A stretch of DNA of 64,000 bases from Eledone cirrhosa (taxonomy: Eukaryota): contig OZ024764.1 in NCBI GenBank assembly GCA_964016885.1, forward strand, positions 19,654,001 to 19,718,000, in the 5' to 3' direction. The notes below the pieces were generated by a model. The model saw only the letters and a list, made by a program, of their open reading frames with translations. It was not told the origin of the DNA and made no database searches. The position numbers and the translations under genes are program-made. Positions within the stretch are counted from its first letter, which is position 1, and the number at the start of each line of letters is the position of its first letter. This document shows, one piece after another, positions 1,416 through 51,400 of this stretch.

Positions 1416-1431
1416 CACTCACACAGTAGAT

Positions 1432-1770
1432 CATCATCATTTCATTTTACGTCCGCTTTTTCCCTGCTTGCAAGGGTGGGACGGGAACTGATTCTGGCTT
1501 GATTTCTACAGCTGGATGCCCTTCCTAACACCAACCTCATTTACAGTGAGTGCTGGGTGCTTTTTTGCCGTGGCACCTCCACAACCACTTTGCAGTGGAA
1601 TGATAGGGACCCCAGTCCTATCATCTCATTTCTACAGCTGAGTAAACTGGAGCAATGTGAAATAAAGTGCCTTGCTCAAGGAAACAACACATCACCCGGT
1701 CTGAGAATTAAACTCACAACCTTTCGATTGCAAGGCCAATGCTCTAACCACTAAGCCATGTGCCTCCATC
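1432..1770 (-). mobile_element. Composite tRNA-headed SINE with (ATG)n tail
   Basis: Minus strand: A box TGGCTTAGTGG, degenerate B box GAGTTTAATTC, TCCTTGAGCAAGGCACTTTA core and (ATG)n tail. Near-identical copy at 15255-15580. Confidence 0.85.
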
Positions 1771-4700
1771 CTTTCAATTGCAAGGCCAATGCTCTAACCA
1801 CTAAGCCATGTGCCTCCATCCTTTCCATTGCAAGGCCAATGCTCTAACCAGTAAGCCATGTGCCTCCATCCTTTTGATTGCAAGGCCAATGCTCTAACCA
1901 CTAAGCCATGTGCCTCCATCCTTTCCATTGCAAGGCCAATGCTCTAACCACTAAGCCATGTGCCTCCATCCTTTCCATTGCAAGGCCAATGCTCTAACCA
2001 CTAAACCATGTGCCTCCAACCTTTCCATTGCAAGGCCAATGCTCTAACCACTAAGCCATGTGCCTCCATCCTTTCCATTGCAAGGCCAATGCTCTAACGA
2101 CTAAGCCATGTGCCTCCATTGCAAGGCCAATGCTCTAACCACTAAGCCATGTGCCTCCAACCTTTCCATTGCAAGGCCAATGCTCTAACCACTAAGCCAT
2201 GTGCCTCCATCCTTTCCATTGCAAGGCCAATGCTCTAACCACTAAGCCATGTGCCTCCATCCTTTCCATTGCAAGGCCAATGCTCTAACCACTAAGCCAT
2301 GTGCCTCCAACCTTTCGATTGCAAGGCCAAAGCTCTAACCACTAAGCCATGTGCCTCCATCCTTTCCATTGCAAGGCCAATGCTCTAACCAGTAAGCCAT
2401 GTGCCTCCATCCTTTCCATTGCAAGGCCAATGCTCTAACCACTAAGCCATGTGCCTCCAACCTTTCCATTGCAAGGCCAATGCTCTAACCACTAAGCCAT
2501 GTGCCTCCATCCTTTCCATTGCAAGGCCAATGCTCTAACCACTAAGCCATGTGCCTCCAACCTTTCGATTGCAAGGCCAATGCTCTAACCACTAAGCCAT
2601 GTGCCTCCATCCTTTCCATTGCAAGGCCAATGCTCTAACCAGAAAGCCATGTGCCTCCATCCTTTCCATTGCAAGGCCAATGCTCTAACCAGTAAGCCAT
2701 GTGCCTCCATCCTTTCCATTGCAAAGCCAATGCTCTAACCACTAAGCCATGTGCCTCCATCCTTTCCATTGCAAGGCCAATGCTCTAACCACTAAGCCAT
2801 GTGCCTCCATCCTTTCCATTGCAAGGCCAATGCTCTAACCACTAAGCCATGTGCCTCCATCCTTTCCATTGCAAGGCCAATGCTCTAACCACTAAGCCAT
2901 GTGCCTCCATCCTTTCCATTGCAAGGCCAATGCTCTAACCACTAAGCCATGTGCCTCCATCCTTTCCATTGCAAGGCCAATGCTCTAACCAGTAAGCCAT
3001 GTGCCTCCATCCTTTCAATTGCAAGGCCAATGCTCTAACCACTAAGCCATGTGCCTCCAACCTTTCCATTGCAAGGCCAATGCTCTAACCACTAAGCCAT
3101 GTGCCTCCATCCTTTCCATTGCAAGGCCAATGCTCTAACCACTAAGCCATGTGCCTCCAACCTTTCGATTGCAAAGCCAATGCTCTAACCACTAAGCCAT
3201 GTGCCTCCATCCTTTCCATTGCAAGGCCAATGCTCTAACCAGTAAGCCATGTGCCTCCATCCTTTCCATTGCAAGGCCAATGCTCTAACCAGTAAGCCAT
3301 GTGCCTCCATCCTTTCCATTGCAAGGCCAATGCTCTAACCAGTAAGCCATGTGCCTCCATCCTTTCCATTGCAAGGCCAATGCTCTAACCACTAAGCCAT
3401 GTGCCTCCATCCTTTCCATTGCAAGGCCAATGCTCTAACCAGTAAGCCATGTGCCTCAAACCTTTCGATTGCAAGGCCAATGCTCTAACCAGTAAGCCAT
3501 GTGCCTCCATCCTTTCAATTGCAAGGCCAATGCTCTAACCACTAAGCCATGTGCCACCATTGCAAGGCCAATGCTCTAACCACTAAGCCATGTGCCTCCA
3601 TTGCAAGGCCAATGCTCTAACCACTAAGCCATGTGCCTCCAACCTTTCCATTGCAAGGCCAATGCTCTAACCACTAAGCCATGTGCCTCCATCCTTTCCA
3701 TTGCAAGGCCAATGCTCTAACCACTAAGCCATGTGCCTCCATCCTTTCCATTGCAAGGCCAATGCTCTAACCACTAAGCCATGTGCCTCCATCCTTTCCA
3801 TTGCAAGGCCAATGCTCTAACCACTAAGCCATGTGCCTCCATCCTTTCCATTGCAAGGCCAATGCTCTAACCACTAAGCCATGTGCCTCCATCCTTTCCA
3901 TTGCAAGGCCAATGCTCTAACCACTAAGCCATGTGCCTCCATCCTTTCCATTGCAAGGCCAATGCTCTAACCACTAAGCCATGTGCCTCCATCCTTTCCA
4001 TTGCAAGGCCAATGCTCTAACCACTAAGCCATGTGCCTCCATCCTTTCCATTGCAAGGCCAATGCTCTAACCACTAAGCCATGTGCCTCCAACCTTTCGA
4101 TTGCAAGGCCAAAGCTCTAACCACTAAGCCATGTGCCTCCATCCTTTCCATTGCAAGGCCAATGCTCTAACCAGTAAGCCATGTGCCTCCATCCTTTCCA
4201 TTGCAAGGCCAATGCTCTAACCACTAAGCCATGTGCCTCCAACCTTTCCATTGCAAGGCCAATGCTCTAACCACTAAGCCATGTGCCTCCATCCTTTCCA
4301 TTGCAAGGCCAATGCTCTAACCACTAAGCCATGTGCCTCCAACCTTTCGATTGCAAGGCCAATGCTCTAACCACTAAGCCATGTGCCTCCATCCTTTCCA
4401 TTGCAAGGCCAATGCTCTAACCAGTAAGCCATGTGCCTCCATCCTTTCCATTGCAAGGCCAATGCTCTAACCAGTAAGCCATGTGCCTCCATCCTTTCCA
4501 TTGCAAGGCCAATGCTCTAACCAGTAAGCCATGTGCCTCCATCCTTTCCATTGCAATGCCAATGCTCTAACCACTAAGCCATGTGCCTCCATCCTTTCCA
4601 TTGCAAGGCCAATGCTCTAACCAGTAAGCCATGTGCCTCCAACCTTTCGATTGCAAGGCCAATGCTCTAACCAGTAAGCCATGTGCCTCCATCCTTTCAA

Positions 4701-7700
4701 TTGCAAGGCCAATGCTCTAACCACTAAGCCATGTGCCTCCATCCTTTCCATTGCAAGGCCAATGCTCTAACCACTAAGCCATGTGCCTCCATCCTTTCGA
4801 TTGCAAGGCCAATGCTCTAACCACTAAGCCATGTGCCTCCATCCTTTCCATTGCAAGGCCAATGCTCTAACCACTAAGCCATGTGCCTCCATGCTTTCCA
4901 TTGCAAGGCCAATGCTCTAACCACTAAGCCATGTGCCTCCATCCTTTCCATTGCAAGGCCAATGCTCTAACCACTAAGCCATGTGCCTCCATCCTTTCCA
5001 TTGCAAGGCCAATGCTCTAACCACTAAGCCATGTGCCTCCATCCTTTCCATTGCAAGGCCAATGCTCTAACCAGTAAGCCATGTGCCTCCATCCTTTCAA
5101 TTGCAAGGCCAATGCTCTAACCACTAAGCCATGTGCCTCCATCCTTTCCATTGCAAGGCCAATGCTCTAACCAATAAGCCATGTGCCTCCATCCTTTCCA
5201 TTGCAAGGCCAATGCTCTAACCACTAAGCCATGTGCCTCCATCCTTTCCATTGCAAGGCCAATGCTCTAACCACTAAGCCATGTGCCTCCATCCTTTCCA
5301 TTGCAAGGCCAATGCTCTAACCACTAAGCCATGTGCCTCCATCCTTTCATTTGCAAGGCCAATGCTCTAACCACTAAGCCATGTGCCTCCATCCTTTCCA
5401 TTGCAAAGCCAATGCTCTAACCACTAAGCTATGTGCCTCCATCCTTTCCATTGCAAGGCCAATGCTCTAACCACTAAGCCATGTGCCTCCATCCTTTCCA
5501 TTGCAAGGCCAATGCTCTAACCACTAAGCCATGTGCCTCCATCCTTTCCATTGCAAGGCCAATGCTCTAACCACTAAGCCATGTGCCTCCAACCTTTCAA
5601 TTGCAAGGCCAATGCTCTAACCACTAAGCCATGTGCCTCCATCCTTTCAATTGCAAGGCCAATGCTCTAACCACTAAGCCATGTGCCTCCATCCTTTCCA
5701 TTGCAAGGCCAATGCTCTAACCACTAAGCCATGTGCCTCCAACCTTTCAATTGCAAGGCCAATGCTCTAACCACTAAGCCATGTGCCTCCATCCTTTCAA
5801 TTGCAAGGCCAATGCTCTAACCACTAAGCCATGTGCCTCCATCCTTTCCATTGCAAGGCCAATGCTCTAACCACTAAGCCATGTGCCTCCAACCTTTCAA
5901 TTGCAAGGCCAATGCTCTAACCACTAAGCCATGTGCCTCCATCCTTTCCATTGCAAGGCCAATGCTCTAACCACTAAGCCATGTGCCTCCATCCTTTCCA
6001 TTGCAAGGCCAATGCTCTAACCACTAAGCCATGTGCCTCCATTGCAAGGCCAATGCTCTAACCACTAAGCCATGTGCCTCCATCCTTTCATTTGCAAGGC
6101 CAATGCTCTAACCACTAAGCCATGTGCCTCCATCCTTTCCATTGCAAGGCCAATGCTCTAACCACTAAGCCATGTGCCTCCATTGCAAGGCCAATGCTCT
6201 AACCACTAAGCCATGTGCCTCCATCCTTTCCATTGCAAGGCCAATGCTCTAACCACTAAGCCATGTGCCTCCAACCTTTCCATTGCAAGGCCAATGCTCT
6301 AACCACTAAGCCATGTGCCTCCATCCTTTCCATTGCAAGGCCAATGCTCTAACCACTAAGCCATGTGCCTCCATCCTTTCCATTGCAAGGCCAATGCTCT
6401 AACCACTAAGCCATGTGCCTCCATTGCAAGGCCAATGCTCTAACCACTAAGCCATGTGCCTCCAACCTTTCAATTGCAAGGCCAATGCTCTAACCACTAA
6501 GCCATGTGCCTCCATCCTTTCCATTGCAAGGCCAATGCTCTAACCACTAAGCCATGTGCCTCCATCCTTTCCATTGCAAGGCCAATGCTCTAACCACTAA
6601 GCCATGTGCCTCCATTGCAAGGCCAATGCTCTAACCACTAAGCCATGTGCCTCCATCCTTTCATTTGCAAGGCCAATGCTCTAACCACTAAGCCATGTGC
6701 CTCCATCCTTTCCATTGCAAGGCCAATGCTCTAACCACTAAGCCATGTGCCTCCATTGCAAGGCCAATGCTCTAACCACTAAGCCATGTGCCTCCATCCT
6801 TTCCATTGCAAGGCCAATGCTCTAACCACTAAGCCATGTGCCTCCATCCTTTCCATTGCAAGGCCAATGCTCTAACCACTAAGCCATGTGCCTCCAACCT
6901 TTCAATTGCAAGGCCAATGCTCTAACCACTAAGCCATGTGCCTCCATCCTTTCAATTGCAAGGCCAATGCTCTAACCACTAAGCCATGTGCCTCCATCCT
7001 TTCCATTGCAAGGCCAATGCTCTAACCACTAAGCCATGTGCCTCCAACCTTTCAATTGCAAGGCCAATGCTCTAACCACTAAGCCATGTGCCTCCATCCT
7101 TTCAATTGCAAGGCCAATGCTCTAACCACTAAGCCATGTGCCTCCATCCTTTCCATTGCAAGGCCAATGCTCTAACCACTAAGCCATGTGCCTCCAACCT
7201 TTCAATTGCAAGGCCAATGCTCTAACCACTAAGCCATGTGCCTCCATCCTTTCCATTGCAAGGCCAATGCTCTAACCACTAAGCCATGTGCCTCCATCCT
7301 TTCCATTGCAAGGCCAATGCTCTAACCACTAAGCCATGTGCCTCCAACCTTTCAATTGCAAGGCCAATGCTCTAACCACTAAGCCATGTGCCTCCATCCT
7401 TTCAATTGCAAGGCCAATGCTCTAACCACTAAGCCATGTGCCTCCATCCTTTCCATTGCAAGGCCAATGCTCTAACCACTAAGCCATGTGCCTCCATTGC
7501 AAGGCCAATGCTCTAACCACTAAGCCATGTGCCTCCATCCTTTCCATTGCAAGGCCAATGCTCTAACCACTAAGCCATGTGCCTCCAACCTTTCCATTGC
7601 AAGGCCAATGCTCTAACCACTAAGCCATGTGCCTCCATCCTTTCCATTGCAAGGCCAATGCTCTAACCACTAAGCCATGTGCCTCCATCCTTTCCATTGC

Positions 7701-7787
7701 AAGGCCAATGCTCTAACCACTAAGCCATGTGCCTCCATCCTTTCCATTGCAAGGCCAATGCTCTAACCACTAAGCCATGTGCCTCCA
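1718..7787 (-). repeat. ~6-kb satellite of 50-bp units (~120 copies, some 41-bp variants) made from the SINE tRNA-like 5' head
   Basis: Unit CCTTTCCATTGCAAGGCCAATGCTCTAACCACTAAGCCATGTGCCTCCAT is continuous with the SINE at 1432-1770. Confidence 0.97.
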
Positions 7788-7854
7788 GTAGATATATTGT
7801 TATAATCTTTGTTGTAATGTACCTCACTACCGTACACAATAATTATGTTATTAG

Positions 7855-8470
7855 CATCAGACGCCATGCTTTGCAGCACAGAGTTATGGCCCTTTACGTT
7901 CTGAGTTCAAATCCCGGCGAAGTTAACTTTGCCTTTCATCCTTACGGGGGGGGGGGGGGGGGGTCAATAAAATAGAGTACCAGTAATACACTGGGATAAT
8001 TGCTGGCCTTGTGCCAAAAGTAGAAACAATTATTATTATTATTATTATGATAGTGGATTGACAGAATCGGTAGTGTCAGATGCTCTGCAGCATAGAGTTA
8101 CGGCCCTTTATTTTCTGAGTTCAAATCCCGCCGGATTGGCAGTATCGATAAAGTGAGACACACCATGCTTTGCAGCATAGAGTTACGGCCCTTTACGATC
8201 TATGTTCTGCCGAGCTTAACTTGGTCTTTCATCCTTACAGGGTTGATAAAATAAAGTACCAGTAATACACTGGGGTATTTGCTAGCCTTGTGCCATCGGT
8301 AGAGGGTCGGTCGCCATGCTTTGCAGCACAGTTACGTCCCTTTACGGACTGAGTTCAAATCCCGCCGAGGTTAACTTTGCCTTTCATCCTTACGGGGTCG
8401 ATAAAATAAAGTACCAGTAATGCACTGGGTAATTGCTGGCCTTGTGTCAAAAGTAGAAATATTATTATAA
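7855..8470 (+). mobile_element. Cluster of ~4 partial tRNA-SINE copies
   Basis: Repeated GGCCCTTTACGTTCTGAGTTCAAATCCCG...TTAACTTTGCCTTTCATCCTTACGGGGTCGATAAAATAAAGTACCAG. Confidence 0.8.
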
Positions 8471-9712: not shown

Positions 9713-11659
9713 TCAAATAAGGGACCCAATGAAAGATTTCTCTGGAGTGTGTGTGCGTCTGTGTTTGTTTAAGACACTGTTAGAGACAAACGATTTCCCA
9801 CATATTTCACAGTAAAAGGGTTTCTCTCCAGTGTGACTACGTTTGTGGACAACTAATGTGGATTTCTGAGTGAAAACATTCCCACATATTTCACAGTGGA
9901 AGGGTTTTTCTCCTGTGTGTATTCGTTGGTGAATAACAAAACTAGAATTTAGAGAAAAAGATTTCCCACATATTTCACAATGATAAGGTTTTTCTCCAGT
10001 GTGTTTTCTTCTGTGATTTATTAAATAGGTTTTAATGGCAAATGACTGCCCACATATTTCACAGTGGTAGGGTTTTTCTCCAGTGTGTGTTCTTTTGTGA
10101 ACTACAAGATGAGAATTAAAAGAGAATGACTTCCCACATATTTCACAATGATAGGGTTTTTCTCCAGTGTGTGTTCTTTTATGTTTTGTTAAATCACTAT
10201 TTTTGAGACAAGATTTCCCACATATTTCACAGTGGAAAGGTTTCTCTCCAGTGTGTGTTCTTTTGTGATTTGTTAAATAGGTGTTAAAAGCAAATGATTT
10301 CCCACATATTTCACAATGAAAGGGTTTTTCTCCACTGTGTGTTCTTTTATGATGTTTTAAGATACTGGTAGAGGAAAAAGATTTCCCACATATCTCACAG
10401 TGGAAAGGTTTCTCTCCAGTGTGAACTCTTCTGTGTTTTGTTAAATCACTGTTATAACCAAAGGGTTTCCCACATATTTCACAGTGGAATAATCCTTCTC
10501 CAGTGTGTATAGTTTTGTGTCTGTTTAAATCTCTATTATTTACAAAAGATTTCCCACATATTTCACAGTGGTAGGGTTTTTCTCCAGTGTGTGTATGTTT
10601 GTGGTTTATAAGATTTGAATTAAGAGAGAAAGCTTTCCCACATATGTCACAATGATAAGGTTTTTCCCCAGTGTGTGTTCTTTTGTGATTTGCTAAACAA
10701 CTGTTACTGGCAAAAGATTTCCCACATATTTCACAATGATAGGGTTTCTCTCCAGTGTGTGTTCTTTCATGTTTTGTTAGATAGTTATTAATGGCAAATG
10801 ACTTCCCACATATTTCACAATGGTAGGGTTTTTCTCCAGTGTGTGTTCTTTTGTGTTTTGTTAAGTCACTATTTTTGCTAAAAGATTTTCCACATATTTC
10901 ACAGTGATAGGGTTTTTCTCCAGTATGACTTCGTTTGTGAACTAGGAAATGAGAATTCTGAGTGAAAGGTCTCCCACATATTTCACAACGATAAGGTTTT
11001 TCTCCAGTGTGTATTCTTTTGTGTTCTTTTAAAATACAGTTAGAGGAAAAAGATTTCCCACATATTTCACAATGATAGGGTTTTTCTCCAGTGTGTGTTC
11101 TGTTGTGTTGCTTTAAGACACTGTTGGAGGAAAAATATTTCCCACATATTTCACAATAAAACACCTTTTCTCCATTGTGAATCTGTTTGTGTGCCAAAAT
11201 TTCAAGTTCTGAAGAGAAAGTTTTCTTACAAATCTCACAGCAATATTCAAGAATATTTCTGTTTAAAGATCCTTGTTTAGTACATGTTTCATTAGGTAAA
11301 GGTTTCTCACCCCTGTATGTCTGTGTAACTGTATCTATATTGGTAGGTTTCTCACCCCTGTATGTCTGTGTAACTGTATCTATATTGGTAGGGTTCTCAC
11401 CCCTGTATGTCTGTGTAACTGTATCTATATTGGTAGGTTTCTCACCCCTGTATGTCTGTGTAACTGTATCTATATTGGTAGGGTTCTCACCCCTGTATGT
11501 CTGTGTAACTGTATCTATATTGGTAGGTTTCTCACCCCTGTATGTCTGTGTAACTGTATCTATATTGGTAGGTTTCTCATCCCTGTATGTTTGTGTAACT
11601 GTATCTATATTGGTAAAAACAGGTGTGGTAGAAATGTCCAAGTGTTTAACATCCTCCAT
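9713..11659 (-). CDS. C2H2 zinc-finger protein, 648 aa, 18 tandem fingers plus N-terminal 7x15-aa repeat
   Basis: Intact ORF with 18 CxxC...HxxxH units and TGEKP linkers. Confidence 0.95.
   Translation of the reverse strand: MEDVKHLDISTTPVFTNIDTVTQTYRDEKPTNIDTVTQTYRGEKPTNIDTVTQTYRGENPTNIDTVTQTYRGEKPTNIDTVTQTYRGENPTNIDTVTQTYRGEKPTNIDTVTQTYRGEKPLPNETCTKQGSLNRNILEYCCEICKKTFSSELEILAHKQIHNGEKVFYCEICGKYFSSNSVLKQHNRTHTGEKPYHCEICGKSFSSNCILKEHKRIHTGEKPYRCEICGRPFTQNSHFLVHKRSHTGEKPYHCEICGKSFSKNSDLTKHKRTHTGEKPYHCEICGKSFAINNYLTKHERTHTGEKPYHCEICGKSFASNSCLANHKRTHTGEKPYHCDICGKAFSLNSNLINHKHTHTGEKPYHCEICGKSFVNNRDLNRHKTIHTGEGLFHCEICGKPFGYNSDLTKHRRVHTGEKPFHCEICGKSFSSTSILKHHKRTHSGEKPFHCEICGKSFAFNTYLTNHKRTHTGEKPFHCEICGKSCLKNSDLTKHKRTHTGEKPYHCEICGKSFSFNSHLVVHKRTHTGEKPYHCEICGQSFAIKTYLINHRRKHTGEKPYHCEICGKSFSLNSSFVIHQRIHTGEKPFHCEICGNVFTQKSTLVVHKRSHTGEKPFYCEICGKSFVSNSVLNKHRRTHTPEKSFIGSLI
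11301..11615 (-). repeat. In-frame 45-bp coding minisatellite, 7 copies (TNIDTVTQTYRGEKP)
   Basis: Unit GGTTTCTCACCCCTGTATGTCTGTGTAACTGTATCTATATTGGTA. Confidence 0.95.
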
Positions 11660-15134: not shown

Positions 15135-15665
15135 CTAGAACACCTGTGACCTGTTGGGTCACGTTCCCTTTAAAAATAATTTTTAAACAATTAAAATATA
15201 CACAGACATGTCTATAATCTAAAATGAAATTAGTAGGCCCATGAATATATATATCATCATCATCATCATCATCATTTTACGTCCGCTTTTCCCTGCTTGC
15301 AAGGGTGGGACGGGAGCTGATTCTACAGCTGGATGCCCTTCCTAACACCAACCTCATTTACAGTGAGTGCTGGGTGCTTTTTTGCCGTGGGACCGCCACT
15401 TTGTAGTGGAATGATATGGACCCCGGTACCTATCATCTCATTTCTACAGCTGAGTAAACTGGAGCAATGTGAAATAAAGTGTCTTGCTCAAGGAAACAAC
15501 ACATCACCCAGTCTGAGAATTGAACTCACAACCTTTCGATTGGAAGGCCAATGCTCTAACCACTAAGCCATGTGCCTCCATATATATATACACACACACG
15601 TCACTTGTTATAATTTTATAACTTCGTTCAACAGCACCACCAGCTATCTCTCTCACACACACCCA
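15135..15665 (-). mobile_element. Non-autonomous Helitron 3' part, interrupted by a SINE
   Basis: Minus-strand hairpin GTGACC-CAACA-GGTCAC followed by CTAG terminus at 15135-15138. Confidence 0.75.
15255..15580 (-). mobile_element. Composite tRNA-SINE, unexpanded sibling of 1432-1770; cassette 1 only
   Basis: A box, intact B box GAGTTCAATTC and (ATG)n tail; inserted in a (TA)n tract that is uninterrupted at ~32450-32520. Confidence 0.85.
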
Positions 15666-24193: not shown

Positions 24194-24774
24194 TTTGTTA
24201 CTAAATACTAGATATTACAGGGTCATGTTCTAGATGGGCTGGAAGAGCCATTCCATCTCGTGAGGCTCACACCAGCAGCTAGCCACCTCAGCACCTATGG
24301 TGGTATATTTATTATATTATTTATTCTTTATCATTAACATTAATATAAAAGATAATTATATATTTTTAGAGAACCTCTAATTTCATATAGCTTAGGGCTT
24401 CAGTAGGTAAAAGTCTGGCCCTGCTTGTCCTGTATTTTTTAGGGGAGAAGTTAGGGAATACTGTTATTGTGTGAAAGTTTTCTAAATCTTCAGCCACTAA
24501 CATGGAGAAGATATTTCAGTAAGAAGGTTCACATCCTGACATCTATAGCTGTTAACAATGAGATTGGAATTCATTATAAAACAAATGTTATATCATCATC
24601 ACTGTTTAACATCAGTTTTTCCACGCTGGCATGGGTTAGACGAGTTATCCTGTTGTAAGCAAGGCCAGGTCAGGTGATCACGTGTTGCTGCTATAGAACA
24701 AATTTTGGATTGGTTTCTACAGCTGGATGCACCAACCTTATTTACATTAAGTACTGGGTGTTTTTACCATCTCA

Positions 24775-25510
24775 CCATCACGACCACTTTACAGTGTGGC
24801 TGGGTGCTTTTTGTTGTGACAGCTACATGACCACTTTAAAGTGTGCATTGGGTGCTTTTTGTTGTGACACCTACATGACCACTTTACAGTTTGGACTGGG
24901 TACTTTTTGTTGTGACACCAACATAACCATTTTAAAGTTTTGGCTGGGTACTTTTTGTTGTCACCTACATGACCACTTTACAGTTTGGGCTGGGTGCTTT
25001 TTGCCGTGACACCTACGCAACCGCTTTACAGTGTGGGCTGGTTTCTTTTTGTCATATCACCTACAAGACCAGCTTATAGTGTTGGCTGTGTGTTCTTTAC
25101 AGTGTGGGCTGGTTTCTTTTTGTCATATCACCTACATGACCACCTTATAGTGTTGGCTGTGTGTTCTTTGCAGTGTGGGCTGGTTTCTTTTTGTCATATC
25201 ACCTACATGACCACCTTATAATGTTGACTGTGTGTTCTTTGCAGTGTGGGCTGTTTCTTTTTGTCATATCACCTACATGACCACCTTATAATGTTGACTG
25301 TGTGTTATTTGCAGTGTGGGCTGGTTTCTTTTTGTCATATCACCTACATGACCACCTTATAATGTTGACTGTGTGTTCTTTACAGTGTGGGTTGGTTTTT
25401 TTTGTCATATCACCTACATGACCACCTTCTAATGTTGACTGTGTGTTCTTTACAGTGTGGGTTGGGTGCTTTTTGTCATATCTCCTACCCAACCACTTTG
25501 CAGTGTGGGC
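24775..25510. repeat. 48/70-bp minisatellite derived from SINE body
   Basis: CACTTTACAGTGTGGGCTGGGTGCTTTTTGTTGTGACACCTACATGAC matches SINE 1538-1600; copies at 42045-42735 and 58845-59135. Confidence 0.85.
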
Positions 25511-26253: not shown

Positions 26254-27832
26254 TAAGCTAAATACAGACTCAGTATTGGCAGTGTTTTTCAGTTCTTTGC
26301 ATATAGGAAAATGAACTAAATTTTCATCTGACGACGGAGATTTCCATAAGCTTAGTTTTCTAATGAAGCACTTGATGTCATCATTCAACTGATTGATGGG
26401 TTTGTTTTTACCTTGTAATTTCAAATTAAGATCAGTTAATTATGCAGTAATATCCACAACAAAAGCCAGATGTTGGAGCCAACTTTCATCTTTTATTTCA
26501 TCTGTGTTTTAACCTTTTCTCTCCAAAAACATAATTATTTCTTGTCTCAACAAATAGAATCTTTTCAGCACTTTGTGACATGTCAACCAGCAGACTTCTG
26601 TGTAGAATGGAACATCAGTGAACTGATTATCCATATCTTCCAACAACTGGCTGAACTGACGGTGGTTGAGAGCACGGCCTCTGATTTAGTTCACTGTCTT
26701 TGTGACCAAGCTAAGCACATGATGCAATTTTAAAATCTTTGAACATAAATTTTGTTGATGAATAATAGTGAAAATGTGCAAATGATGAATCTAGATATGA
26801 GTTTTCTATTTTTGTTTGTAACTTGGCAGCAACACCATTATGTCTACCAACCATATTTGCAGCACTGTCAGTAGATAAACATGCAAGTTTACTCAGATCA
26901 AAACCATGCAGACCCTGCTTGACCTTCTCAAAGATGTCCTGGCTTGTTATAGTGTCATGCATGGGGACCAGTTCAATCAGTTCTTCATAAATATTAAATT
27001 CACAGTCACAGGCCCTGGTGAAGAATGCAAGCTGTGCTATTCCAGTGATGTCAAGAGTCTCATCAATAGCAATAGAAACATGTTCAAACCTTGATGATAC
27101 AGCCTTTAACTGTTGTTTCAGATCACCTGACATTTCATTAATCTGTTCAGCAACAGTGTTCCTGGTTAATGAAATGTCTTTGAATAACTCTGCTTTCTCT
27201 GGACAATTTCAGCTGTTTTTACAAGACATTGCTTTACAAAATCTCCTTCACTGTAAGATTTCCCACTCATGGCAATCATTTGACTGAGTTCATAGCTTGC
27301 AGTAACGGAAGTGATATCCTCTTCCTGAATTAACATAAAACAGGTCTGTTGCTGTGTCAAGTTAACCTTTAATTCCTTGAGTCTTGAAACACACATTGGG
27401 CCTTCATATTTATTGTAAGATCGAGGGTTTGTTTCATAATGTCTTTTTAAATTGTACTCTTTTGGCGTGGCGATGTAGTTGTTGCAAATTAAACAGTGTA
27501 TCTTTCTGTTCACCATTGGGCAAAAATACTGTAATTCCCACTTTTCTTGAAACACTTGCCCTTCTTCGTTCAATTTCCTTTTTCTCTTAGCTGGAGGAGC
27601 ACTAACCATTTCAAAAACGAAATCTTTTGAAATTTTGAAAGAAAGTTTTCTGTTAATGAGCTGCCCGTGATTAATGGAAGTTAAAAGTAGTTGACAAAAT
27701 TTGCAAAAAAAAAATAATTGTATCGAAAATGTTTTAAATTTTATATTACGAAAATGAAACATGCTCGCACTGTAAAAACCTTAGTGTGGGCCGCAGATTT
27801 GCTTGCCAAGGGCCGCATGTTTGACATGTCTG
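26254..27832 (-). mobile_element. hAT (Charlie/GTF2IRD2-like) transposon relic, one end deleted
   Basis: FQEKWELQYF...CLIC...KEYNLKRHY and SIAIDETLDITGIAQLAFF; terminus CAGACATGTCAAAC; frameshifted. Confidence 0.9.
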
Positions 27833-28640: not shown

Positions 28641-28790
28641 TGAAGGCGTGTGGCTGAATGGTTAGAGAATTGGATTCGGAATTGTGAGGTTGTGAGTTCG
28701 ATTCTCAGACTGGGCGATGCGTTATGTCCTTGAGCAAGACATTTTATTTCACGTTGCTCCTTCTACCTGGAGTTGCGACCGATAGATAGT
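28641..28790 (+). mobile_element. tRNA-SINE head (same family as the satellite seed)
   Basis: TGGCTGAATGG A box, GAGTTCGATTC B box, TCCTTGAGCAAGACA core; copy at 46320-46460, deleted in cassette 3. Confidence 0.8.
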
Positions 28791-36172: not shown

Positions 36173-37275
36173 TCTAATGTCACTAATAACTACTTGTATC
36201 AGTCAGCATAATCTGATATCACTAATAACTACTTTAATCTAATGTCACTAATAACTACTTTTATCAGTCAGTTTAATCTAATGTCACTAATAACTACTTT
36301 TATCAGTCAGTTTAATCTAATGTCATTAATAACTACTTTTATCAGTCAGTATAATCTAATGTCACTAATAACTACTTTTATCAGTCAGTTTAATCTAATG
36401 TCACTAGTAACTACTTTTATCTGTCAGTTTAATCTAATGTCACTAGTAACTACTTTTATCAGTCAGTTTAATCTAATGTCACTAATAACTACTTTTATCA
36501 GTCAGTTTAATCTAATGTCATTAATAACTACTTTTATCAGTCAGTATAATCTAATGTCACTAATAACTACTTTTATCAGTCAGTTTAATCTAATGTCACT
36601 AATAACTACTTTTATCAGTCAGTTTAATCTAATGTCACTAATAACTACTTTTATCAGTCAGTATAATCTAATGTCACTAATAACTACTTTTATCAGTCAG
36701 TATAATCTAATGTCACTAATAACTACTTTTATCAGTCAGTATAATCTAATGTCACTAATAACTACTTTTATCAGTCAGTTTAATCTAATGTCACTAATAA
36801 CTACTTTTATCAGTCAGTTTAATCTAATGTCACTAATAACTACTTTTATCAGTCAGTATAATCTAATGTCACTAATAACTACTTTTATCAGTCAGTTTAA
36901 TCTAATGTCATTAATAACTACTTTTATCAGTCAGTTTAATCTAATGTCACTAATAACTACTTTTATCAGTCAGTTTAATCTAATGTCACTAATAACTACT
37001 TTTATCAGTCAGTTTAATCTAATGTCATTAATAACTACTTTTATCAGTCAGTTTAATCTAATGTCACTAATAACTACTTTTATCAGTCAGTTTAATCTAA
37101 TGTCACTAATAACTACTTTTATCAGTCAGTATAATCTAATGTCACTAATAACTACTTTTATCAGTCAGTATAATCTAATGTCACTAATAACTACTTTTAT
37201 CAGTCAGTATAATCTAATGTCACTAATAACTACTTTTATCAGTCAGTATAATCTACTGCCACTAATAACTAACCT
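36173..37275. repeat. 39-bp minisatellite, ~28 copies
   Basis: Same unit as 19117-19570, expanded. Confidence 0.95.
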
Positions 37276-38215
37276 ATGTTAGTCAGCACATTCTTCACCA
37301 AAGAAGGCCTTAGTATTTATTACAGTCCATTTATCAATATAGAAATATTCTATGAAATTTGTACTGACGTATTACAAGTTTCTGAGAATCTTATAATGTT
37401 CTTTTATTATTTCAGAATACCAGAGGACATTGGCATTAAAGAGCACGTTACATCAGACATATCCTCAATATTAACCATTTCTAATGAAAGACACTACCCA
37501 TCATTTTCAAATAATTTTGAAAACACTCAACACTTTGAAGGGATTTAGTAATATAACTAAATTTCTCAGTATTAAGCTGCTATTTGGAACATAACTTTGC
37601 ACAATTTCATGAAGTTATAATGGAAATTTTTTAGATAAATATAAAGACTGATATGAAAAGGATAAAACACTTTTATATCAGTTGTTTCATCAACACCATT
37701 ATTTAAAGACTAAAGGAAGCTGTTATACAGAACAGATACAACCTTGTTTATATAAATCTAGGGGAGAAATACTGGGAAATATTTCTTGTAAACTCAATAA
37801 CACTTCTATTCTTCGCTGTCTGGAATATGTAGAAGATACAAAATAAAGCTGAAGAAATTTACACATGATTTTGTAAGATCTTCATATATTGACAAAGTTG
37901 ATAGTAGATGGAACTACAGGAGTAGAAATATTTCCATTATTACAGGAATTACTAATCAAATAAAAACCAGAAAAATTAGATTCTTCACTGTCTGGAATAT
38001 GTACAAGATGATTTTATATGTATATTAAACTTGAAGAGATCTACAAAACAGTTTGTATCCTCTTTAAATATAAAGAAAGACCAAAGTTGATAGAAATATA
38101 TCTGGAGGAATATGTTTTAAGAATAATATTATAAACATAAAGAAGAAAACTATCCATATATTGCAAGGAGAAACATATTAAAACTGTGAATTATGTGAGA
38201 AACTGAGGTGATTGA

Positions 38216-41446: not shown

Positions 41447-43473
41447 TTTGTTACTAAATACTAGATATTAGAGGGTTATGTTGTTCTAGATGTGCTGGAA
41501 GAGCCATTCCATCTCGTGAGGCTCACACCAGCAGCTAGCCACCTCAGCACCTATGGTGGTATATTTATTATATTATTTATTCTTTATCATTAATATTAAT
41601 ATAAAAGATAATTATATATTTTTAGAGAAGAACCTCTAATTCATATAGCTTAGGGCTTCAGTAGGTAAAAGTCTGGCCCTGCTTGTCTTGTATTTTTTAG
41701 GGGAGAAGTTAGGGAATACTGTTATTGTGTGAAAGTTTTCTAAATCTTCAGCCACTAACATGGAGAAGATATTTCAGTAAAAAGGTTCACATCCTGACAT
41801 CTATAGCTGTTAACAATGAGATTGGAATTCATTATTAAACAAATGTTATATCAGCATCACTGTTTAACAACAGTTTTTTTACGCTGGCATGGGTTAGACG
41901 AGTTATCCTGTTGTAAGCAAGGCCAGGTCAGGTGACCATGTCTGGCTCCTACAGAACAAATTTTGGACTGGTTTCTACAGCTGGATGCCCTTCCTAGCAC
42001 CAACCTTATTTACATTGAGTACTGGATGCATTTTACCATCTCACCATCACGACCACTTTATACTGTGGGCTGGGTGCTTTTTGTTGTGACACCTATATGA
42101 CCACTTTACAGTGTGGGCTGGGTGCTTTTTGTTGTGACACCTACATGATCACTTTACAGTGTGGACTGGGTACTTTTTGTTGTGACACCTACATGACCAT
42201 TTTACAGTTTTGACTGGGTGCTTTTTGTTGTGACACCTACATGACCACTTTATAGTGTGGACTGGGTGCTTTTTGTTGTGACACCTACACGACCACTTTA
42301 AAGTTTTGGCTGGGTTCTTTTTGTTGTCACCTCCATGACCACTTCACAGTGTGGGCTGGGTGCTTTTTGCCGTGACACCTACGCAACCGCTTTACAGTGT
42401 GGGCTGGTTTCTTTTTGTCATATCACCTACATGACCGCCTTATAATGTTTACTGTGTGTTCTTTGCAGTGTAGGCTGGTTTCTTTTTGTCATATCACCTA
42501 CATGACCACCTTATAATGTTTACTGTGTGTTCTTTGCAGTGTAGGCTGGTTTCTTTTTGTCATATCACCTACATGACCACCTTATAATGTTTACTGTGTG
42601 TTCTTTGCAGTGTAGGCTGGTTTCTTTTTGTCATATCACCTACATGACCACCTTATAATGTTGACTGTGTGTTCTTTACAGTATGGGTTGGGTGCTTTTT
42701 GTCATATATCCTACCCAACCACTTTGCAGAGTGGGCAGTGAAATATCAGTAATGCACCAGCTCCAATATTCAGTAATCAGAAGAAGGGAGGTAGGCATAA
42801 AAGCCAAACTTGCTGTCTTCAATTAGGTTTTTGTGCCAACCCTTACCTATGGTCACATATCTTGGGTAATGACCAAAAGAATATGATTGGGAATACAAAT
42901 GGTAGATATGGGATTCCTCTGAAGGGTCTTTGAAGGAACTTTTCTCAATAAAGTGCATAGCTCTGAGATCAGAGAGTCACTCCAGGTGGAGCTGTTACTT
43001 CTCCGAATTGAGAGATCACAGCTGCAATACTATGGCCATGTGGTTAGAATGTCTGAGGAAAGAATCACTGGATAGATTTTACAGGCAAAACTAACCGGCA
43101 GGAGACCCAGGGGTAGACCTGAGCAAGATGGTCACATAACATCCATGACCTTGGCTGGTCTCTCTGGGAGATCCAGCCAGATCAGTTGGGGTGGGTTACT
43201 TCTGACAGGATTTCCCTGCTAGCAAGGGTTTAATGAGTCTACTTCAACCAAGTAAGTACTGAAGTGAGGCTACTGATCTCTAGACAGACCAAGGATCTGA
43301 GACTTATTTACATAAGGTCTCATTTGCTACTGAGTGCACAGAAAAGGTTGTCATGCTTTTGTCATGATTGAAGGGTTCTCCAACACTATTGTCGGGCAAG
43401 CTTTCTATGGCTAGATGTCCTTCACATGACCAACCACATTACAGCCTGTGTTGGGTGTGTTTATCATGTAGGT

Positions 43474-45515
43474 GAGGCATAACAAACAGGGTTCCCTAAG
43501 GGCCACATAGGTCACATGTGTTGTCTGAGGGTTGCACAGTGCAACTAATTATGTACACAACTAATTAAAGTCATTTAATAAAATTTAATGCAGAAAGATT
43601 TGTTACTTAAATTTAGAAACATACAATGTACATACAAATGTTTTAGCAGCATTCATGAATACAAAGTAATGAAGTAGTTTGATAAAAAACTAAAATTTAA
43701 CATGTCAACATATACTTGCAGATTGTAACAGCAACAAATACATTGTACACAAATAACAACAGTTGAAAACTGAACATTTATTTGCTACTATTCAACCATC
43801 TTTAGTGTTTTGTCCTGAGGCTTGACACTTCTTTCTGTTGATTATTTTTGTTATATCTGGCTGAAATGTCTGTACAGTTTCAACTTTAAACAGAGATGAC
43901 AAGTGTTGATCTGTCAGCCTTGTTCTCTGAGAAGTTTTTGTAAGCTAAGTACAGACTCAGTATGGGCAGTGATTTTCAGCTCTTTGCACATAAGAAAATG
44001 AATTAAATTTTCATCTGACAACGGAGACTTCCATAAGCTAAGTTTTCTAATGAAGAACTTGATGTCATCATACAACTGAGTGATGGGTTTGTTTTTACCT
44101 TGTAATTTCAAATTAAGGTCAGTTAATTGTGCAGTAATATCCACAAATAAAGCCAGATGTTGGAGCCAACTTTCATCTTTTATTTCATCTGTGTTTTGAC
44201 CTTTCATCTCCAAAAACATAATTATTTCAACAAATAGAATCTTTTCACCACTTTGTGACATGTCAACCAGCAGACTTCTGTGTAGAATGGAACATCGGTG
44301 AACTGATTATCCATATCTTCCAACAACTGGCTGAACTGACGGTGGTTGAGAGCATGGCCTCTGATTTAGTTCACTGTCTTTGTGACCAAGCTAAGCACAT
44401 GATGCAATTTTAAAATCTTTGAACATAAATTTTGCTGATGAATAATGCAGTGAAAATGTGCAAATGAGGAATCTAGATATGAGTTTTCTATTTTTGTTTG
44501 TAACTTGGCAGCAACACCATTATGTCTACCAACCATATTTGCAGCACTGTCAGTAGATAAACATGCAAGTTTACTCAGATCAAAACCATGCAGACCCTGC
44601 TTGACCTTCTCAAAGATGTCCTGGCTTGTTATAGTGTCATGCATGGGGACCAGTTCAATCAGTTCTTCATAAATATTAAATTCACAGTCACAGGCCCTGA
44701 TGAAGAATGCAAGCTGTACTATTCCAGTGATGTCAACAGTCTCTTCAATAGCAATAGAAACATGTTAAAACCTTGATGATACAGCCTTTAACTGTTGTTT
44801 CAGATCACCTGACATTTCATTAATCTGTTCAGCAACAGTGTTCCTGGTTAATGAAATGTCTTTGAATAACTCTGCTTTCTCTGGACAATTTCAGCTGTTT
44901 TTACAAGACATTACTTTACAAAATCTCCTTCACTGTAAGATTTCCCACTCATGGCAATCATTCGACTGAGTTCATAGCTTGCAGTAACAGAAGTGACATT
45001 CTCTTCCTGAATTAACGTTAAAACAGGTCTGTTGCTGTGTCAAGTTAGACTTCAATTCCTTGAGTCTTGAAACACACATTGGGCCTTCATATTTATCGTA
45101 AGATTGATGGTTTGTTTCATAATGTCTTTTTAAATTGTACTCTTTTGGCGTGGAGATGTAGTTGTTGCAAATTAAACAGTGTATCTTTCTGTTCACCATT
45201 GGGCAAAAATACTGTAATTCCCACTTTTCTTGAAACACTTGCCCTTCTTCGTTCAATTTCCTTTTTCTCTTAGCTGGAGGATCACTAACCATTTCAAAAA
45301 CAAAATCTTTTGAAATTTTGAAAGAAAGTTTTCTGTTAATGAACTGCACGTGATTAATGGAAGTTAAAAGTCGTTGACAAAATTTGCACAAAAAAAATAA
45401 TTGTATCGAAAATGTTTTAAATTTTATATTACGAAAATGAAACATGCTCGCACTGTAAAAACCTTTGTGTGGGCCGCAGGTTTGCTTGCCAAGGGCCGCA
45501 TGTTTGACATGTCTG
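43474..45515 (-). mobile_element. Full-span hAT relic with 8-bp TSD ATGTAGGT
   Basis: TSD at 43466-43473 and 45516-45523; imperfect TIRs GAGGCATAACAAAC and CAGACATGTCAAAC; broken transposase ORFs. Confidence 0.9.
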
Positions 45516-47921
45516 ATGTAGGTTACCAACACTAGGCAGGGCAGCATGTCCATCAGTGTCTTCTGCTACATTAACTACCAGGAGGTCACCACATGAGACA
45601 AAGACCAAAGACTACATTTCAAAGAAGGGTCATAAAAGAACTAAATACAAAAGTCCTCGCAGCAAAAAACAAATAATTGAGCTTTGGGTCTAGGTCAAGG
45701 GGCAGAAGTGCTGTACCCTGTGGATAAGACTGCAAAAGTATTCGCCCCGGACAGTGACACCCACTGCAATAGCCACCCCAACCCCATGGGACTCCCTCTT
45801 CAGAAGGGCCACCAATGTTCTGATCTTACAGAGGAGCTCGCCCGTACAGGGTCCAAGTACTTCTGAGGTCTCGATGGTGACCGGTGTGAAGAGACCTACA
45901 ATTGATGTCATCCCAGTTATGTTGGACTGTAATATACTGGGGTATAGAGAGGCCTTACCCTGTCACAGCCGGGCCACTCAGGGTTGTGTCATCTAAATAC
46001 CGGACAGGGGTAACTAGACCATGTTGTCAACTGCCAACACCAATAGGAGTGGGTCCCCTTGCTAGAGACCATATATAAAAACGTATTTGCTAATTACTTT
46101 AATGAATAATTTGTTTCATACGTAATTATTACTTTTAACACAATAGGATTTTGTACACGTGTTTGTTTGAAAACATCTTTCAAAGAAGTATGAGACAGTC
46201 TTTTGTAGTGTTTATTATAATAAATTACTGTATGTTGAGCTGTTTTAACTTCTCCACCTTCTATTATTTCATATTGTTTTCGTAAAATACCAGATCTTTT
46301 TCATATATATATATATATATGAAGGCGTGTGGCTGAGTGGTTAGAGAATTGGATTCGGAATTGTGAGGTTGTGAGTTCGATTCTCAGACTGGGCGATGCG
46401 TTATGTCCTTGAGCAAGACATTTTATTTCACGTTGCTCCTTCTACCTGGAGTTGCGACCGATAGATAGTATTAGCAATTGGAAAGACCAATGGAAACATT
46501 GTTTCCTCGGTCCGATTTGACGAAAAGTCGATCATAAAAAAAATATAGAGAGAGAGAGAAACACACAAACATACACTACTGTATTACATATGTAAGGGGA
46601 GACAACTCTCGTTACACCCCCCCCCTTCTTTTTGATATACGTACTTTAAATACTTTGTTCAATTGAACCTGCTTTATTTTGTATCCTAAGTAGATTTCTG
46701 TTTAAGTATTTACGAGATTCACAATGATTCACGTAACCAAGTTACTTACATAGAGATATATTTCACATAGAATCACAACAAATGAAAATATTAAGTCAAC
46801 ACTCTGTCAATCAGTCTCACATCACATGGGGTGCCGGAGTCTCCCTCTAATACTTTCTGAGACAGTCTTACCTCGAGTGATAGCAAGGCTAAGATGTTGG
46901 AACTACCAAACACCATCATATGTATCATCTGACACCTCGGTAAGGAGAGCTGCCAACGATAACAAGAACCTCGTTGTCAGGGACCTATCTCCTCCAAACT
47001 TCTCCAACACCACAGACTAGAATATTCTACTCTTTATTCCCTATCAAATATATTTCAGTCTAGTCATTTATCTTGTATCTTGTATATGTATTTTCAAAAC
47101 TAACTGTCACATTAGTGATGTTTTTGTCTCTCTCCCACATCCTACATGCTGTAGTAAAAGTGAGGGTCACTGCTTCTGTAGACGAACGAAATAAAAGCTA
47201 AACTACCAGTAATTATCGGAAAAGTATTTATTCCAGTCTGTGATGTTTGAGAAGCTGGGCTGCTGACAACGAAGTTGTTGTGACTGTTGGCGGCTGGCTT
47301 TACCGAAGTACCCGATGACTCTTGTGAGGGTACTTAGCTGTTCTGGCGGTTTAGCCTCCACATGAATTGATTTTACTGAGCTACCCGGTGATCTCTGTCA
47401 GGGTACTTAGTTCTTCTGGCAACTTATCCTCCATATGACCCGATCCTACCGAGATACCCGGTGATCTCTGTCAGGGTACTTAGCTGTTCTGGCAACTTAG
47501 CCTCCATATGACCCGATCTTACCGAGATACCCGGTGATCTCTGTCAGGGTACTCGATTGATCCAGCACCCTACTATTTCTACCAACAGGTTATATCGAGG
47601 TATCAAGTGATACTCTTTTCTAGTCAAGACCTCCTCTGCTGTCCTCTGTCTTCCAACTGCCCTGTTATTCTACAGACTCACGAAAGTGGACACCACCTGA
47701 AGGAGAGAGTGGTTGGTGTAGTGGTCATCGCTGGCTATTGTCCGAGTGACACAGGTAAAATACACTACCTAGACTGAGGTGAAACGTCTACCGTCCATTC
47801 CTCACCACCAACACCTTTCTTTCTCTATTTTAATTACATTTACTGTTTTCAACTTCACTTTTTTATGACAAACTTTACATAATTTAATTCGGTAAAAATA
47901 TTTTTACGTCACAAAAAAACC

Positions 47922-48485: not shown

Positions 48486-51400
48486 CACGAAACGAGGTAA
48501 ACATTTTCAACTTTCCCCTTTTTTTGCTTTGTCCGAGACAACTTTAAATATTCTTCAAGGAACTGGATTTTCCATTCGGTTGGATCGAACGGATTTTACC
48601 ATTTATAATCTACGGAGAGGAATAACAGATGTTCGGAGGAAAAAAGAATTGTTTGTGGCAACAACGTAGGGAACCAACCTGGAGCAATTGTATCACACAA
48701 TTATACTTTCCTCCTTAACATACACTTACAATTTTTCAAAATCAAACCCCCCAAATATAAAATATAAATAATAATAAATGGCGAGGAACCATCCCATCTC
48801 CCTCTTGAAATAACCTGAATCTATTTATAGTCAGGTGTGACTGAAAGGTCAATCCATACTTCCATTCTATTTCACAGAATTAGAAGCTTTGACCACTTGA
48901 TAGAATTCAGGTCCAGTAATGTAATCACTCCGTAATTGTAAACATCTTGTATCACTATCATTCAGGTTTTGATTTTACTTAAGTCTTGCCCATGTTTTTG
49001 TTTTTTTTTTCTTTTTTACACAAACTCACAATTTCGGTTTTTACTGCGGATTTACCCATGCGAACTATTACACAAACTCACAGCCTTAGATTTTGTATTT
49101 CTAGCGTTTTTATTTTCCTTCTCTTTGCATGTTCAGTGCTCTTTCTCTCCCACTGTATTTACCTGCCTCTCACATGACCACACTCCTCTCCACGCACTCA
49201 TCAGCTTCTCACTCCTTCTCCACCTTCCATCCCTCCCCTTGCTCAACCCTTACTTCCTCCTCGCGCACAGCCCACCTAGGTATTCGTTCAACCCGCCGGT
49301 GGCCCGATGTTTCGACCGAACTATTACCGGCGATTGCCGATTGCTAAAGTTGCCACCACTTTAACCTAGTCCACTCTAGGTGGCGGTGGCATGCGTTGAA
49401 CGACCAAGAGACCTGCGTGGTGGAACGACTAATGTGACAACCGGTCAGCCTTCGACCTCTCATTCTCCACCAACTGCAGCACGCACGAGAGGAGCTAACT
49501 TTCCCCCACCTACCCCCTCCTCTCCTTCACGGCAGATTCCGAACGAATCCAACCCGGCCAACCACACCACCCCTACAACTGTTAGCTCACTACCCAACCC
49601 CCCGCTTTAGTCCCACCGTTAGAACCACTGTTGTCTCCTTTACTGACTCACTCCCTTCACTGAATTCCAACGCTGGCCCTCTACTGCCGGCTGTTGCCAG
49701 CCCGCCACCTGATTGCGCCCTCTGTGCCCTCACTAACCAGTACTTAAAGACAATTAAGTCACCTATGCCACGCAAGCTACCACAGAAGCTGTGTCAGCAT
49801 CACCAAAGCTCAAGCCGAAAGGCTTCAACACTGGACCTGTCATCGGTGCCACTTCAGCTCCGACTATTCCGTGGGGATGACCAACACTCTACCGACGACT
49901 TTCCACAGCCCCCCCCCAGGGCTTCTCCAAATCAAAGCTCGTTAACCGGACCCTTAAGGGAGCTCGGAACAGCTTTGCAGGTGCCCTCTCTAATTTACTG
50001 AAAAACGTTTGCTCATCCAACAATAGTCTGGCAGAAATTGTTTTTGTTTCCCCTCATCTCTCTTCACGTGCACAATGCGAACTCGGGTTCCCTCAAGTCC
50101 TCTCTCAAGCGGCAGTTCCAGCTGTTTGAGTCCACCCCAACCACGTCTCATCTCAGTTCGTCTCCGAGCTCGGTGTCCACCAACAGACAACCGGTAGACC
50201 TCAAGCGAGCCGTCAATGCCAAATTCAGCGAATTTGACATTAAAGGGGCTGTCCTCCCTTGCTCCATGCAACTCTGACTCTCGTGAGCGTCTGAAAGAGA
50301 AGCACCCCCAGATGATCAGCAACACTGGCCCGAACCACCAGAATACTTGAGACCGGTTTACACCACCAATATCATCAGAAAGGCGATTACATCCTTCCCC
50401 GCTGGGTCAGGCGCGGGAATTGACGTCCTTCATCCTCAACACCTCAAGGATGGTATCTCCTTATCGGCCGGTGATGCCGGACTCGAGCTCTTGGAGAGTC
50501 TGACTCAGTTTGTGAATCAGTGAACGTTCTCCCGTTCATCCGCCCACTGTTCTTTGGTGCGAAGCTATTTGGTCTCACCAAGCCCAACGGGGACCTGCGC
50601 CGCATTGCGGTTGGCTGCACACCTCACTGCAAAGGCTTGATTGCTGTTGGACTCCAACCCACTGACGGAGGAATTTTCCCCCATCCAGCTGTGGGTGGAT
50701 ACCAGGTTGGGATGTGTGACTGCTGTCCACGCTGCCAGAGCATTTGCCAACTTGCCCTCCTCATCCCCCAAGGTCATCCTCAAACTTGACCTCAGGAATG
50801 CCTTCAACTCCGTCAGCCGTAACATCGTCCTCGGCTCAGTAAGAGAGAGGGTCCCACAACTCTACCACTTTGCTTGGCAGGCTTATCGGGAGCCCTCCTA
50901 CCTCTCTTTCAGTAACCAGATCATCACCTCTGCCTCAGGAGTCCAACAGGGTGACCCACTCGGGAACCCCCCCCCCCCCCCCCCCCCCCCGCACTGGACA
51001 TTGATGACGTCACCAAGATGGGGGTTGAGTTGGACCTCAATGTCTGGTAGCTCGATGACGCCTATTTGGGGGGAACTCCGGATATGGTTCTCGCCACTGC
51101 CAACAGGATGGTGGAGGAACTTGGCGCCGGGGTCTCCAGATCAATAGTTCCAAATGTGAGCTCTGGATCCTCAACCACCCGGCTTCTTAACACCAACAGC
51201 TGATCGACCTGTTCGCAGAGTCCTTCCCTTCCATCACGGTCCCTCCCCCGTCGGTTTGGTGCTCCTTAGGAGCCCCAATCACAGACCTGGCCTTCGAGTC
51301 AACCATCCAATCGAAGATGGTTTGCCTTGAGCAGCTGCTGAGGAATATTGAAGATATCGAACCCCATCAAGGTTTCTTCTTACTCAGGAACTACCTGTCT

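Follow-up and report, generated by a model that had tools for sequence, protein, structure and literature searches.

The 64000 nt stretch of the Eledone cirrhosa genome analysed here (the window) contains four C2H2 zinc-finger (ZNF) genes, three of them within a segmental duplication of 17–20 kb, and, near its left end, a long minisatellite made from the head of a tRNA-derived SINE (Table 1). The duplicated unit carries one C2H2 gene and is present in three copies (15754–64000) that are 88–96 % identical; its minisatellites (39, 62, 73 and 82 bp) vary in copy number, with 11.6, 26.6 and 10.6 copies of the 39-mer. The ZNF gene closest to the array matches an Octopus sinensis ZNF protein in its non-finger N-terminus (42 % over 59 residues), and a search with its fingers gave mostly generic matches, in which identity did not set octopus apart (61.9 % for a snake protein, 61.6 % for O. 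sinensis). Among the ten top-ranked of 120 matches, however, the finger motif of the window was found in the two O. sinensis proteins alone. We note that the N-terminal part of this gene has a 45 bp repeat (11300–11615, minus strand; seven copies, 97 % matches) which is in frame and gives a 15-residue repeat; the homologue from O. sinensis has this motif once.

Table 1. Features of the array locus and its surroundings (positions within the window; nt numbers are those of the SINE)
Feature	Positions	Strand	Description
Target-site duplication, tail side	1424–1431		7 bp (AGTAGAT) at 1425–1431, 8 bp counting the C
T arm and body of the SINE, with (ATG)n tail	1432–1717	−	SINE nt 51–336; 90.5 % identity to sibling
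Sole B box, GAGTTTAATTC	1705–1715	−	C-to-T at 1710
Array	1718–7786	−	114 units of SINE nt 1–50; nine units of SINE nt 1–41
Terminal unit 123 (original SINE head)	1718–1767	−	Ancestral 42C and 49T in common with sibling
Target-site duplication, head side	7786–7793		7 bp at 7787–7793; 7786 is also SINE nt 1
C2H2 ZNF gene	9713–11659	−	Ends 1.9 kb upstream of array; N-terminus homologous to O. sinensis ZNF
Unexpanded sibling SINE	15255–15579	−	Single head, intact B box
Second SINE-derived array	24605–25505	−	48 and 71 bp units, SINE nt ~171–228, related subfamily

The minisatellite comprises 123 units on the minus strand (114 of 50 bp and nine of 41 bp), in good agreement with the ~6 kb and ~120 A-box units of a preliminary description, and Tandem Repeats Finder places it at 1720–7787 with a period of 50, 123.0 copies and 95 % matches. 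The repeat unit corresponds to nt 1–50 of a 336 nt tRNA-derived SINE, has an A box at nt 10–20 in every case, and is repeated entirely within one inserted copy of that element. On the minus strand the first unit starts at 7786, where it directly abuts a target-site duplication. The units follow one another head to tail, and at the junction of the first duplication nt 50 is linked straight to nt 1, no flanking bases lying between. Unit 123, which ends at 1718, alone continues into a B box (1715–1705), followed by the body of the SINE and by an (ATG)n tail that extends to 1432, so that the earlier observation of a single mutated B box, reached only by the last unit, is correct. The array is about five times the length of the next longest minisatellite in the window (~1.1 kb), a difference that speaks against the history favoured below, and contains ten CpG dinucleotides; its longest open frame is 49 codons, and a coding use was rejected.

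Alignment to the Rfam tRNA model shows that the 50-mer takes in the 5′ strand of the acceptor stem, the D arm, the anticodon arm in full and the variable loop, stopping immediately 5′ of the T arm, whereas the 41-mer stops just past the anticodon loop. The unit was first described as a tRNA 5′-half, a label that does not fit a sequence running through the entire anticodon arm and variable loop to the edge of the T arm. True tRNA 5′ halves (tiRNAs) are cut from mature tRNA and end in the anticodon loop; the unit resembles them in beginning at tRNA nt 1 and including the D arm, but is a DNA repeat that runs through the variable loop and does not have its 3′ end in the anticodon loop. The minus strand of the array indeed lacks TTTT, as had been noted, although this is uninformative, since TTTT is also missing from 91 % of 20000 shuffled units; the absence is at chance level and was discarded as a signal.

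The sequence CAGTAGAT is present at both ends of the SINE that contains the array (1424–1431 and 7786–7793). The duplication is 8 bp long, or 7 bp with a 1 nt overlap, since the C at 7786 is also, by comparison with the sibling, the first base of the SINE. Among 200000 random position pairs outside the array, a 7-mer match with three bases of slack at each side occurred by chance in 0.55 %. The same duplication encloses both SINE and array, which supports growth of the array inside one insertion, as was originally proposed. The target-site duplication, simple-repeat tail and tRNA-like head are those of a tRNA-derived SINE, and the Rfam tRNA score of this copy is 25.4 bits, below the threshold, against 30 bits, which reaches it, for the sibling. 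The sibling, previously placed near 15255–15580, was located at 15255–15579; it is 90.5 % identical to the SINE of the array over 338 columns and has a target-site duplication of its own, a 10 bp AT-repeat (ATATATATAT) at 15245–15254 and 15580–15589. There are three other SINE heads in the window, all of them single, and ARAGORN found no tRNA genes there; Rfam matches to HOTAIR_1 and mir-184 were taken as chance (E-values 6.6–9.1). Two 3′-truncated heads of a related SINE subfamily (28642–28760 and 46321–46439, plus strand) have an intact B box, a TCG triplet at the anticodon position and AT repeats before them, and were duplicated with the segment.

To place this copy within its family, four of 23 sequencing runs were compared, at 88 % likeness, with a reference (950–1767) consisting of the left flank, the SINE and a single array unit; three runs (X1, X4 and X21) are from one species, X21 being from a different sample and study, and the fourth (X5) is from another species; the shares of runs X6–X20 were small. 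All four runs contain the SINE in great abundance, with tens of thousands of contigs or reads per run on the reference, concentrated at the SINE (51810 contigs in X1 and 78082 reads in X21, depths that do not give an exact copy number), and it thus has the high interspersed copy number of a tRNA-derived SINE. The unique left flank (950–1145) has no depth in X21 and X4. In the tRNA model, position 1710 corresponds to the C of the T loop, and a C is found there (minus strand) in 99 % of the family depth in X1, 99.9 % in X4, 95 % in X21 and 69 % in X5, the C-to-T change being private to the SINE copy of the array. At three of the nine SINE positions included in the 40 of 374 rows shown, this copy differs from the majority of X1. 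Neither the array, in which GTTCRANNC has no match on either strand, nor its SINE has the intact B box of a type 2 Pol III promoter.

In yeast, TFIIIC is reported to have nanomolar affinity for the B box and micromolar affinity for the A box, and its binding is almost completely lost on DNA with an A box only (PMC11724288). Since the array is without a B box and the sole B box of the copy is mutated, the array would be expected neither to be transcribed by Pol III nor to form a TFIIIC boundary, extrapolating from yeast data that do not cover 123 weak A boxes in a row. There is no sign that the A boxes are protected: six of the 17 distinct substitutions are in the 11 nt A box, compared with 3.7 expected, and the A box is altered in 21 of the 123 units, 16 of which have one identical change. 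Three units together fold no better than shuffled sequences (z, −1.1), compared with a z of −3.2 for the intact 80 nt head. The suggestion that Pol III makes multimeric tRNA-half RNAs from the array is unsupported, in view of the absence of B-box matches and the private C-to-T change in the only B box.

The array was also suggested to act as a boundary at the edge of the ZNF cluster; one form of this idea is a chromatin boundary that recruits TFIIIC and insulates the zinc-finger cluster. ZNF genes do adjoin the array, and TFIIIC is described as having roles outside Pol III transcription (PMC11724288), but we find the idea barely credible and the role unsupported: TFIIIC, judging from yeast, would need a B box, of which the array has none, and the intact B-box motifs nearby (7905, 8119 and 8353 on the plus strand and 1338 on the minus strand) belong to other repeats, with the three upstream of the array facing the opposite way. 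Moreover, the insertion appears to be young, so that the ZNF cluster would predate it, and, with the window starting only 1.4 kb to the left of the array, a position at the edge of the cluster is conjectural. Satellites of octopus are reported to be somewhat more methylated than transposons (PMC9476566), but the array has only the ten CpG dinucleotides given above.

The sole route to RNA from the array would appear to be Pol II read-through from the ZNF gene, which lies on the same strand 1927 bp upstream. A transcript crossing the array could be a source of multimeric tRNA-like RNA, either cut into tRNA-fragment-like RNAs or acting as a sponge for tRNA-binding proteins, and the D-arm hairpin is retained in each unit. 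Such a source is nevertheless most improbable, since there are five AATAAA motifs between the ZNF gene and the array, the first of them 18 bases past the stop codon, and the folding of the units is not above that of shuffled ones. In addition, where nt 42 carries its commonest base, one pair is lost from an anticodon stem in which only three of five had been present, and since the units have no T arm and no 3′ acceptor strand, RNase P and RNase Z should not accept them as substrates.

The order of the units bears on how the array grew. There are 23 unit types with variants held in common, and the mean pairwise difference is 1.33 per 50 bp. Blocks of units are repeated, including one of 11 units (units 10–20 are the same as 37–47) and two of eight units, and the best repeated run includes five variant units, compared with at most four in 300 shuffles. 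Of the four common substitutions, three show polarity along the array (17C, median unit 89, P=0.005; 42C, median 94, P=0.009; 42T, median 39, P=0.002), with the ancestral 42C lying toward the SINE body; the fourth, 49T, is not polar (P=0.73). These block repeats and polar variants point to DNA-level slippage and unequal exchange, and the 41 bp unit corresponds to a 9 bp deletion between two AT-G microhomologies. From the mean pairwise difference and the comparison with the majority of X1, the array appears to be young and fast-growing.

The order of the units also bears on the accuracy of the assembly. No read or contig of the four runs spans the array and the best run contains 57 % of the sampled words, as might be seen if a short tandem had been inflated to 6 kb during assembly. 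This is very unlikely to be the case, however, because the polar, block-wise order of 23 unit types is unlike the looping of one unit, head junctions are present in raw reads of another sample, and the window is free of Ns.

In the history that we favour, a full-length SINE inserted first, generating the duplication of 7–8 bp, and its nt 1–50 would then have been doubled once at a gapped short match (5′ junction T/GGAG compared with T/GTGAG at nt 50–55). These breakpoints are evident in the sequence, and the route could have been either a DNA event or a jump by reverse transcriptase during insertion. The resulting dimer would have grown in blocks of several units, a process to which the pattern of variants attests and whose mechanism is probably that given above, with 41 bp units arising through the 9 bp deletion. 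With no working B box, TFIIIC would not be expected to load, if the yeast findings apply. We regard it as probable that the array is a SINE-derived minisatellite that originated in a single head duplication, grew by slippage or unequal exchange, would be invisible to Pol III and is likely to be neutral, the last two being predicted because the only B box of this copy is mutated. Neutral expansion had been put forward only as a fallback, and it gains support from the apparently unprotected A boxes and the mutated B box.

It is notable that the breakpoints of the first duplication coincide with RNA landmarks, namely nt 1 and the boundary between the variable loop and the T arm, and an RNA-level seed would explain this no less well than slippage in DNA. 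Non-LTR reverse transcriptases, specifically that of R2, are reported to jump in vivo from the 5′ end of one RNA to another RNA (PMC3414825). A jump of this type from the RNA 5′ end to the base of the T arm could have given rise to a subfamily of double-headed SINEs, transcribed by Pol III from the upstream A box and retrotransposing, with daughters that act as seeds for minisatellite expansion; the array locus would be one such daughter, with its B box lost later. We consider this unlikely, and it would bear on the origin and spread of the array rather than on its later DNA-level growth. It would account for units that start exactly at SINE nt 1 right after the target-site duplication and for junctions with no flanking bases, and the gap from second A box to B box, at 82 bp (73 bp for the 41-mer), is within the natural range of 31–93 bp (PMC11724288). 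However, the breakpoints are also open to explanation by gapped DNA microhomology, none of the three further SINE heads in the window is doubled, and in yeast a nearby upstream pseudo-A box is reported to have given less than 10 % of transcripts (PMC11724288).

The sequencing runs offer evidence on both sides of this question. The head joint (1767 to 1727) was found in X1 (18 contigs), X4 (one contig) and the independent X21 (121 reads with eight starts), and stands at 0 for X5, with 15 of 242 joints displayed and contigs telling presence only. As a share of head depth it amounts to 0.006 % in X4, 0.06 % in X1 and 0.9 % in X21, the low value in X4 being no measure of expression. Four of the five head-junction variants listed for X1 are missing from the window and have depths of 155–249, compared with 5.3 for the contig of the flank. 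There are accordingly further arrays, alleles or dispersed dimers; the fifth variant is a derived junction that the array has as well. Although dispersed double-headed elements would produce such variants, another allele would explain them equally well, as would paralogous arrays that arose through segmental duplication, a frequent event in this region, and contigs cannot separate dispersed dimers from long arrays. Eight of the 15 joints shown, among 242, are backward (seven in the body and one in the head); the SINE family is duplication-prone, and segments other than the head are duplicated too. The ratios of head to body depth are 1.03, 0.53, 0.54 and 0.71 in the four runs, the end of the reference lowering the head depth, and since the head is not deeper than the body the 50-mer would not seem to be a major satellite across the genome.

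The closest known kind of sequence would appear to be the SINE-derived satellites of squamate reptiles, sSat1–3 (Vassetzky et al., 2023; PMC10702118). The Eledone array shares their defining architecture: its unit is taken from a tRNA-derived SINE and is shorter than that SINE (nt 1–50 of 336), a longer terminal unit (unit 123) runs to the SINE end, and there are 121 middle units where at least four middle monomers are called for. Long squamate loci are homogeneous with alternating subvariants, comparable to the 1.33 differences per 50 bp and the repeated blocks seen here. According to the same source, sSat loci have from a few to ~1200 units, major variants use one unit at several loci, minor variants draw on the tRNA head or retain the two ends of the SINE, and a subtelomeric position is a tendency and not a rule (PMC10702118). 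The differences are that the host is a cephalopod, that the units are of 50 or 41 bp rather than ~67–290 bp, that they have the A box only whereas the snake unit contains box B, and that the array, which has SINE nt 1 as its exact start, lies within a target-site duplication that is intact. Another mollusc, Scapharca broughtonii, is described as having TSD-(SINE)n-TSD arrays, in which several SINE-derived units likewise lie in one target-site duplication, but these number 4–15 (counted as SINE hits of at least 150 bp) and not 123 units of 50 bp (PMC11481361). Two motifs looked for in eight supplementary files of that paper were not found. The amphibian repeats PolIII/TAN, OAX and Rana/polIII also consist of tandem units with tRNA-like sequence, although their units are of 200–360 bp, a matching SINE is not shown in the account cited and TAN is transcribed in vitro (PMC10702118), whereas the Eledone array has its parent SINE in place and a unit with no B box.

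The SINE itself may be related to the CORE elements, in that nt ~85–140 resemble the CORE domain; the octopus element OR2 was reportedly described by Ohshima and Okada in 1994. The CORE-SINEs listed for octopus include OR2 (PMC4758252), tRNA-Core is given as a main octopus SINE class, and SINEs as a whole are given as the main repeat class of Octopus bimaculoides and Octopus vulgaris (PMC8967140). The SINE of the array resembles the octopus tRNA-CORE SINEs in its tRNA head and great abundance, a comparison made independently of the OR2 consensus.

We found no SINE-head satellite of a cephalopod in the literature searched, which lay outside subscription papers, Repbase and Dfam. The array would extend SINE-derived satellites from squamates to a cephalopod, and those who described the squamate satellites had asked about their occurrence elsewhere. 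It may be seen as a clean, young case of the birth of a satellite from a SINE, in which one can still read both target-site copies, the parent SINE and how the variants are ordered, and it lends no support to a new Pol III RNA or insulator. If double-headed SINEs did exist, then a retroposon would be sowing promoter-derived satellites genome-wide, long arrays would survive mainly at copies whose B box had died, and head arrays seeded in this manner would provide a direct link between SINE mobility and satellite dispersal.

Tandem growth from SINE pieces is not special to the array at 1718–7786, because the second array in the window (Table 1) is also built from a SINE and is independent of the first. 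It has been copied by the segmental duplication (41954–42729 and 58846–59089) and runs into the 3′ part of the SINE. The window has 23 other minisatellite loci of ~11 families, among them this second array and the 45 bp repeat of the ZNF gene, that make up 14 % of the non-array DNA, counting loci picked by hand from the Tandem Repeats Finder output, duplicates included and ZNF finger exons and microsatellites left out. One of these sequences, the 39 bp minisatellite at 36212–37282 (plus strand), is stop-free in one frame and gives an open frame of 356 codons made of 13-residue repeats, with a ZNF exon shortly downstream; this is likely to be incidental.

Directly upstream of the array, on the opposite strand, are three to four adjoining partial copies of another repeat (7860–8465, plus strand), with B-box-like motifs at the three positions mentioned above and, in one copy, a run of 19 Gs. 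Three consecutive open frames at 50641–52540 (plus strand) resemble, on reading their translations, a broken retroelement with reverse transcriptase. On the minus strand, fragments at 26711–27780, 44972–45565 and 59925–60991 resemble what we presume to be a hAT-type DNA transposase, and these are repeated with the segmental duplication.
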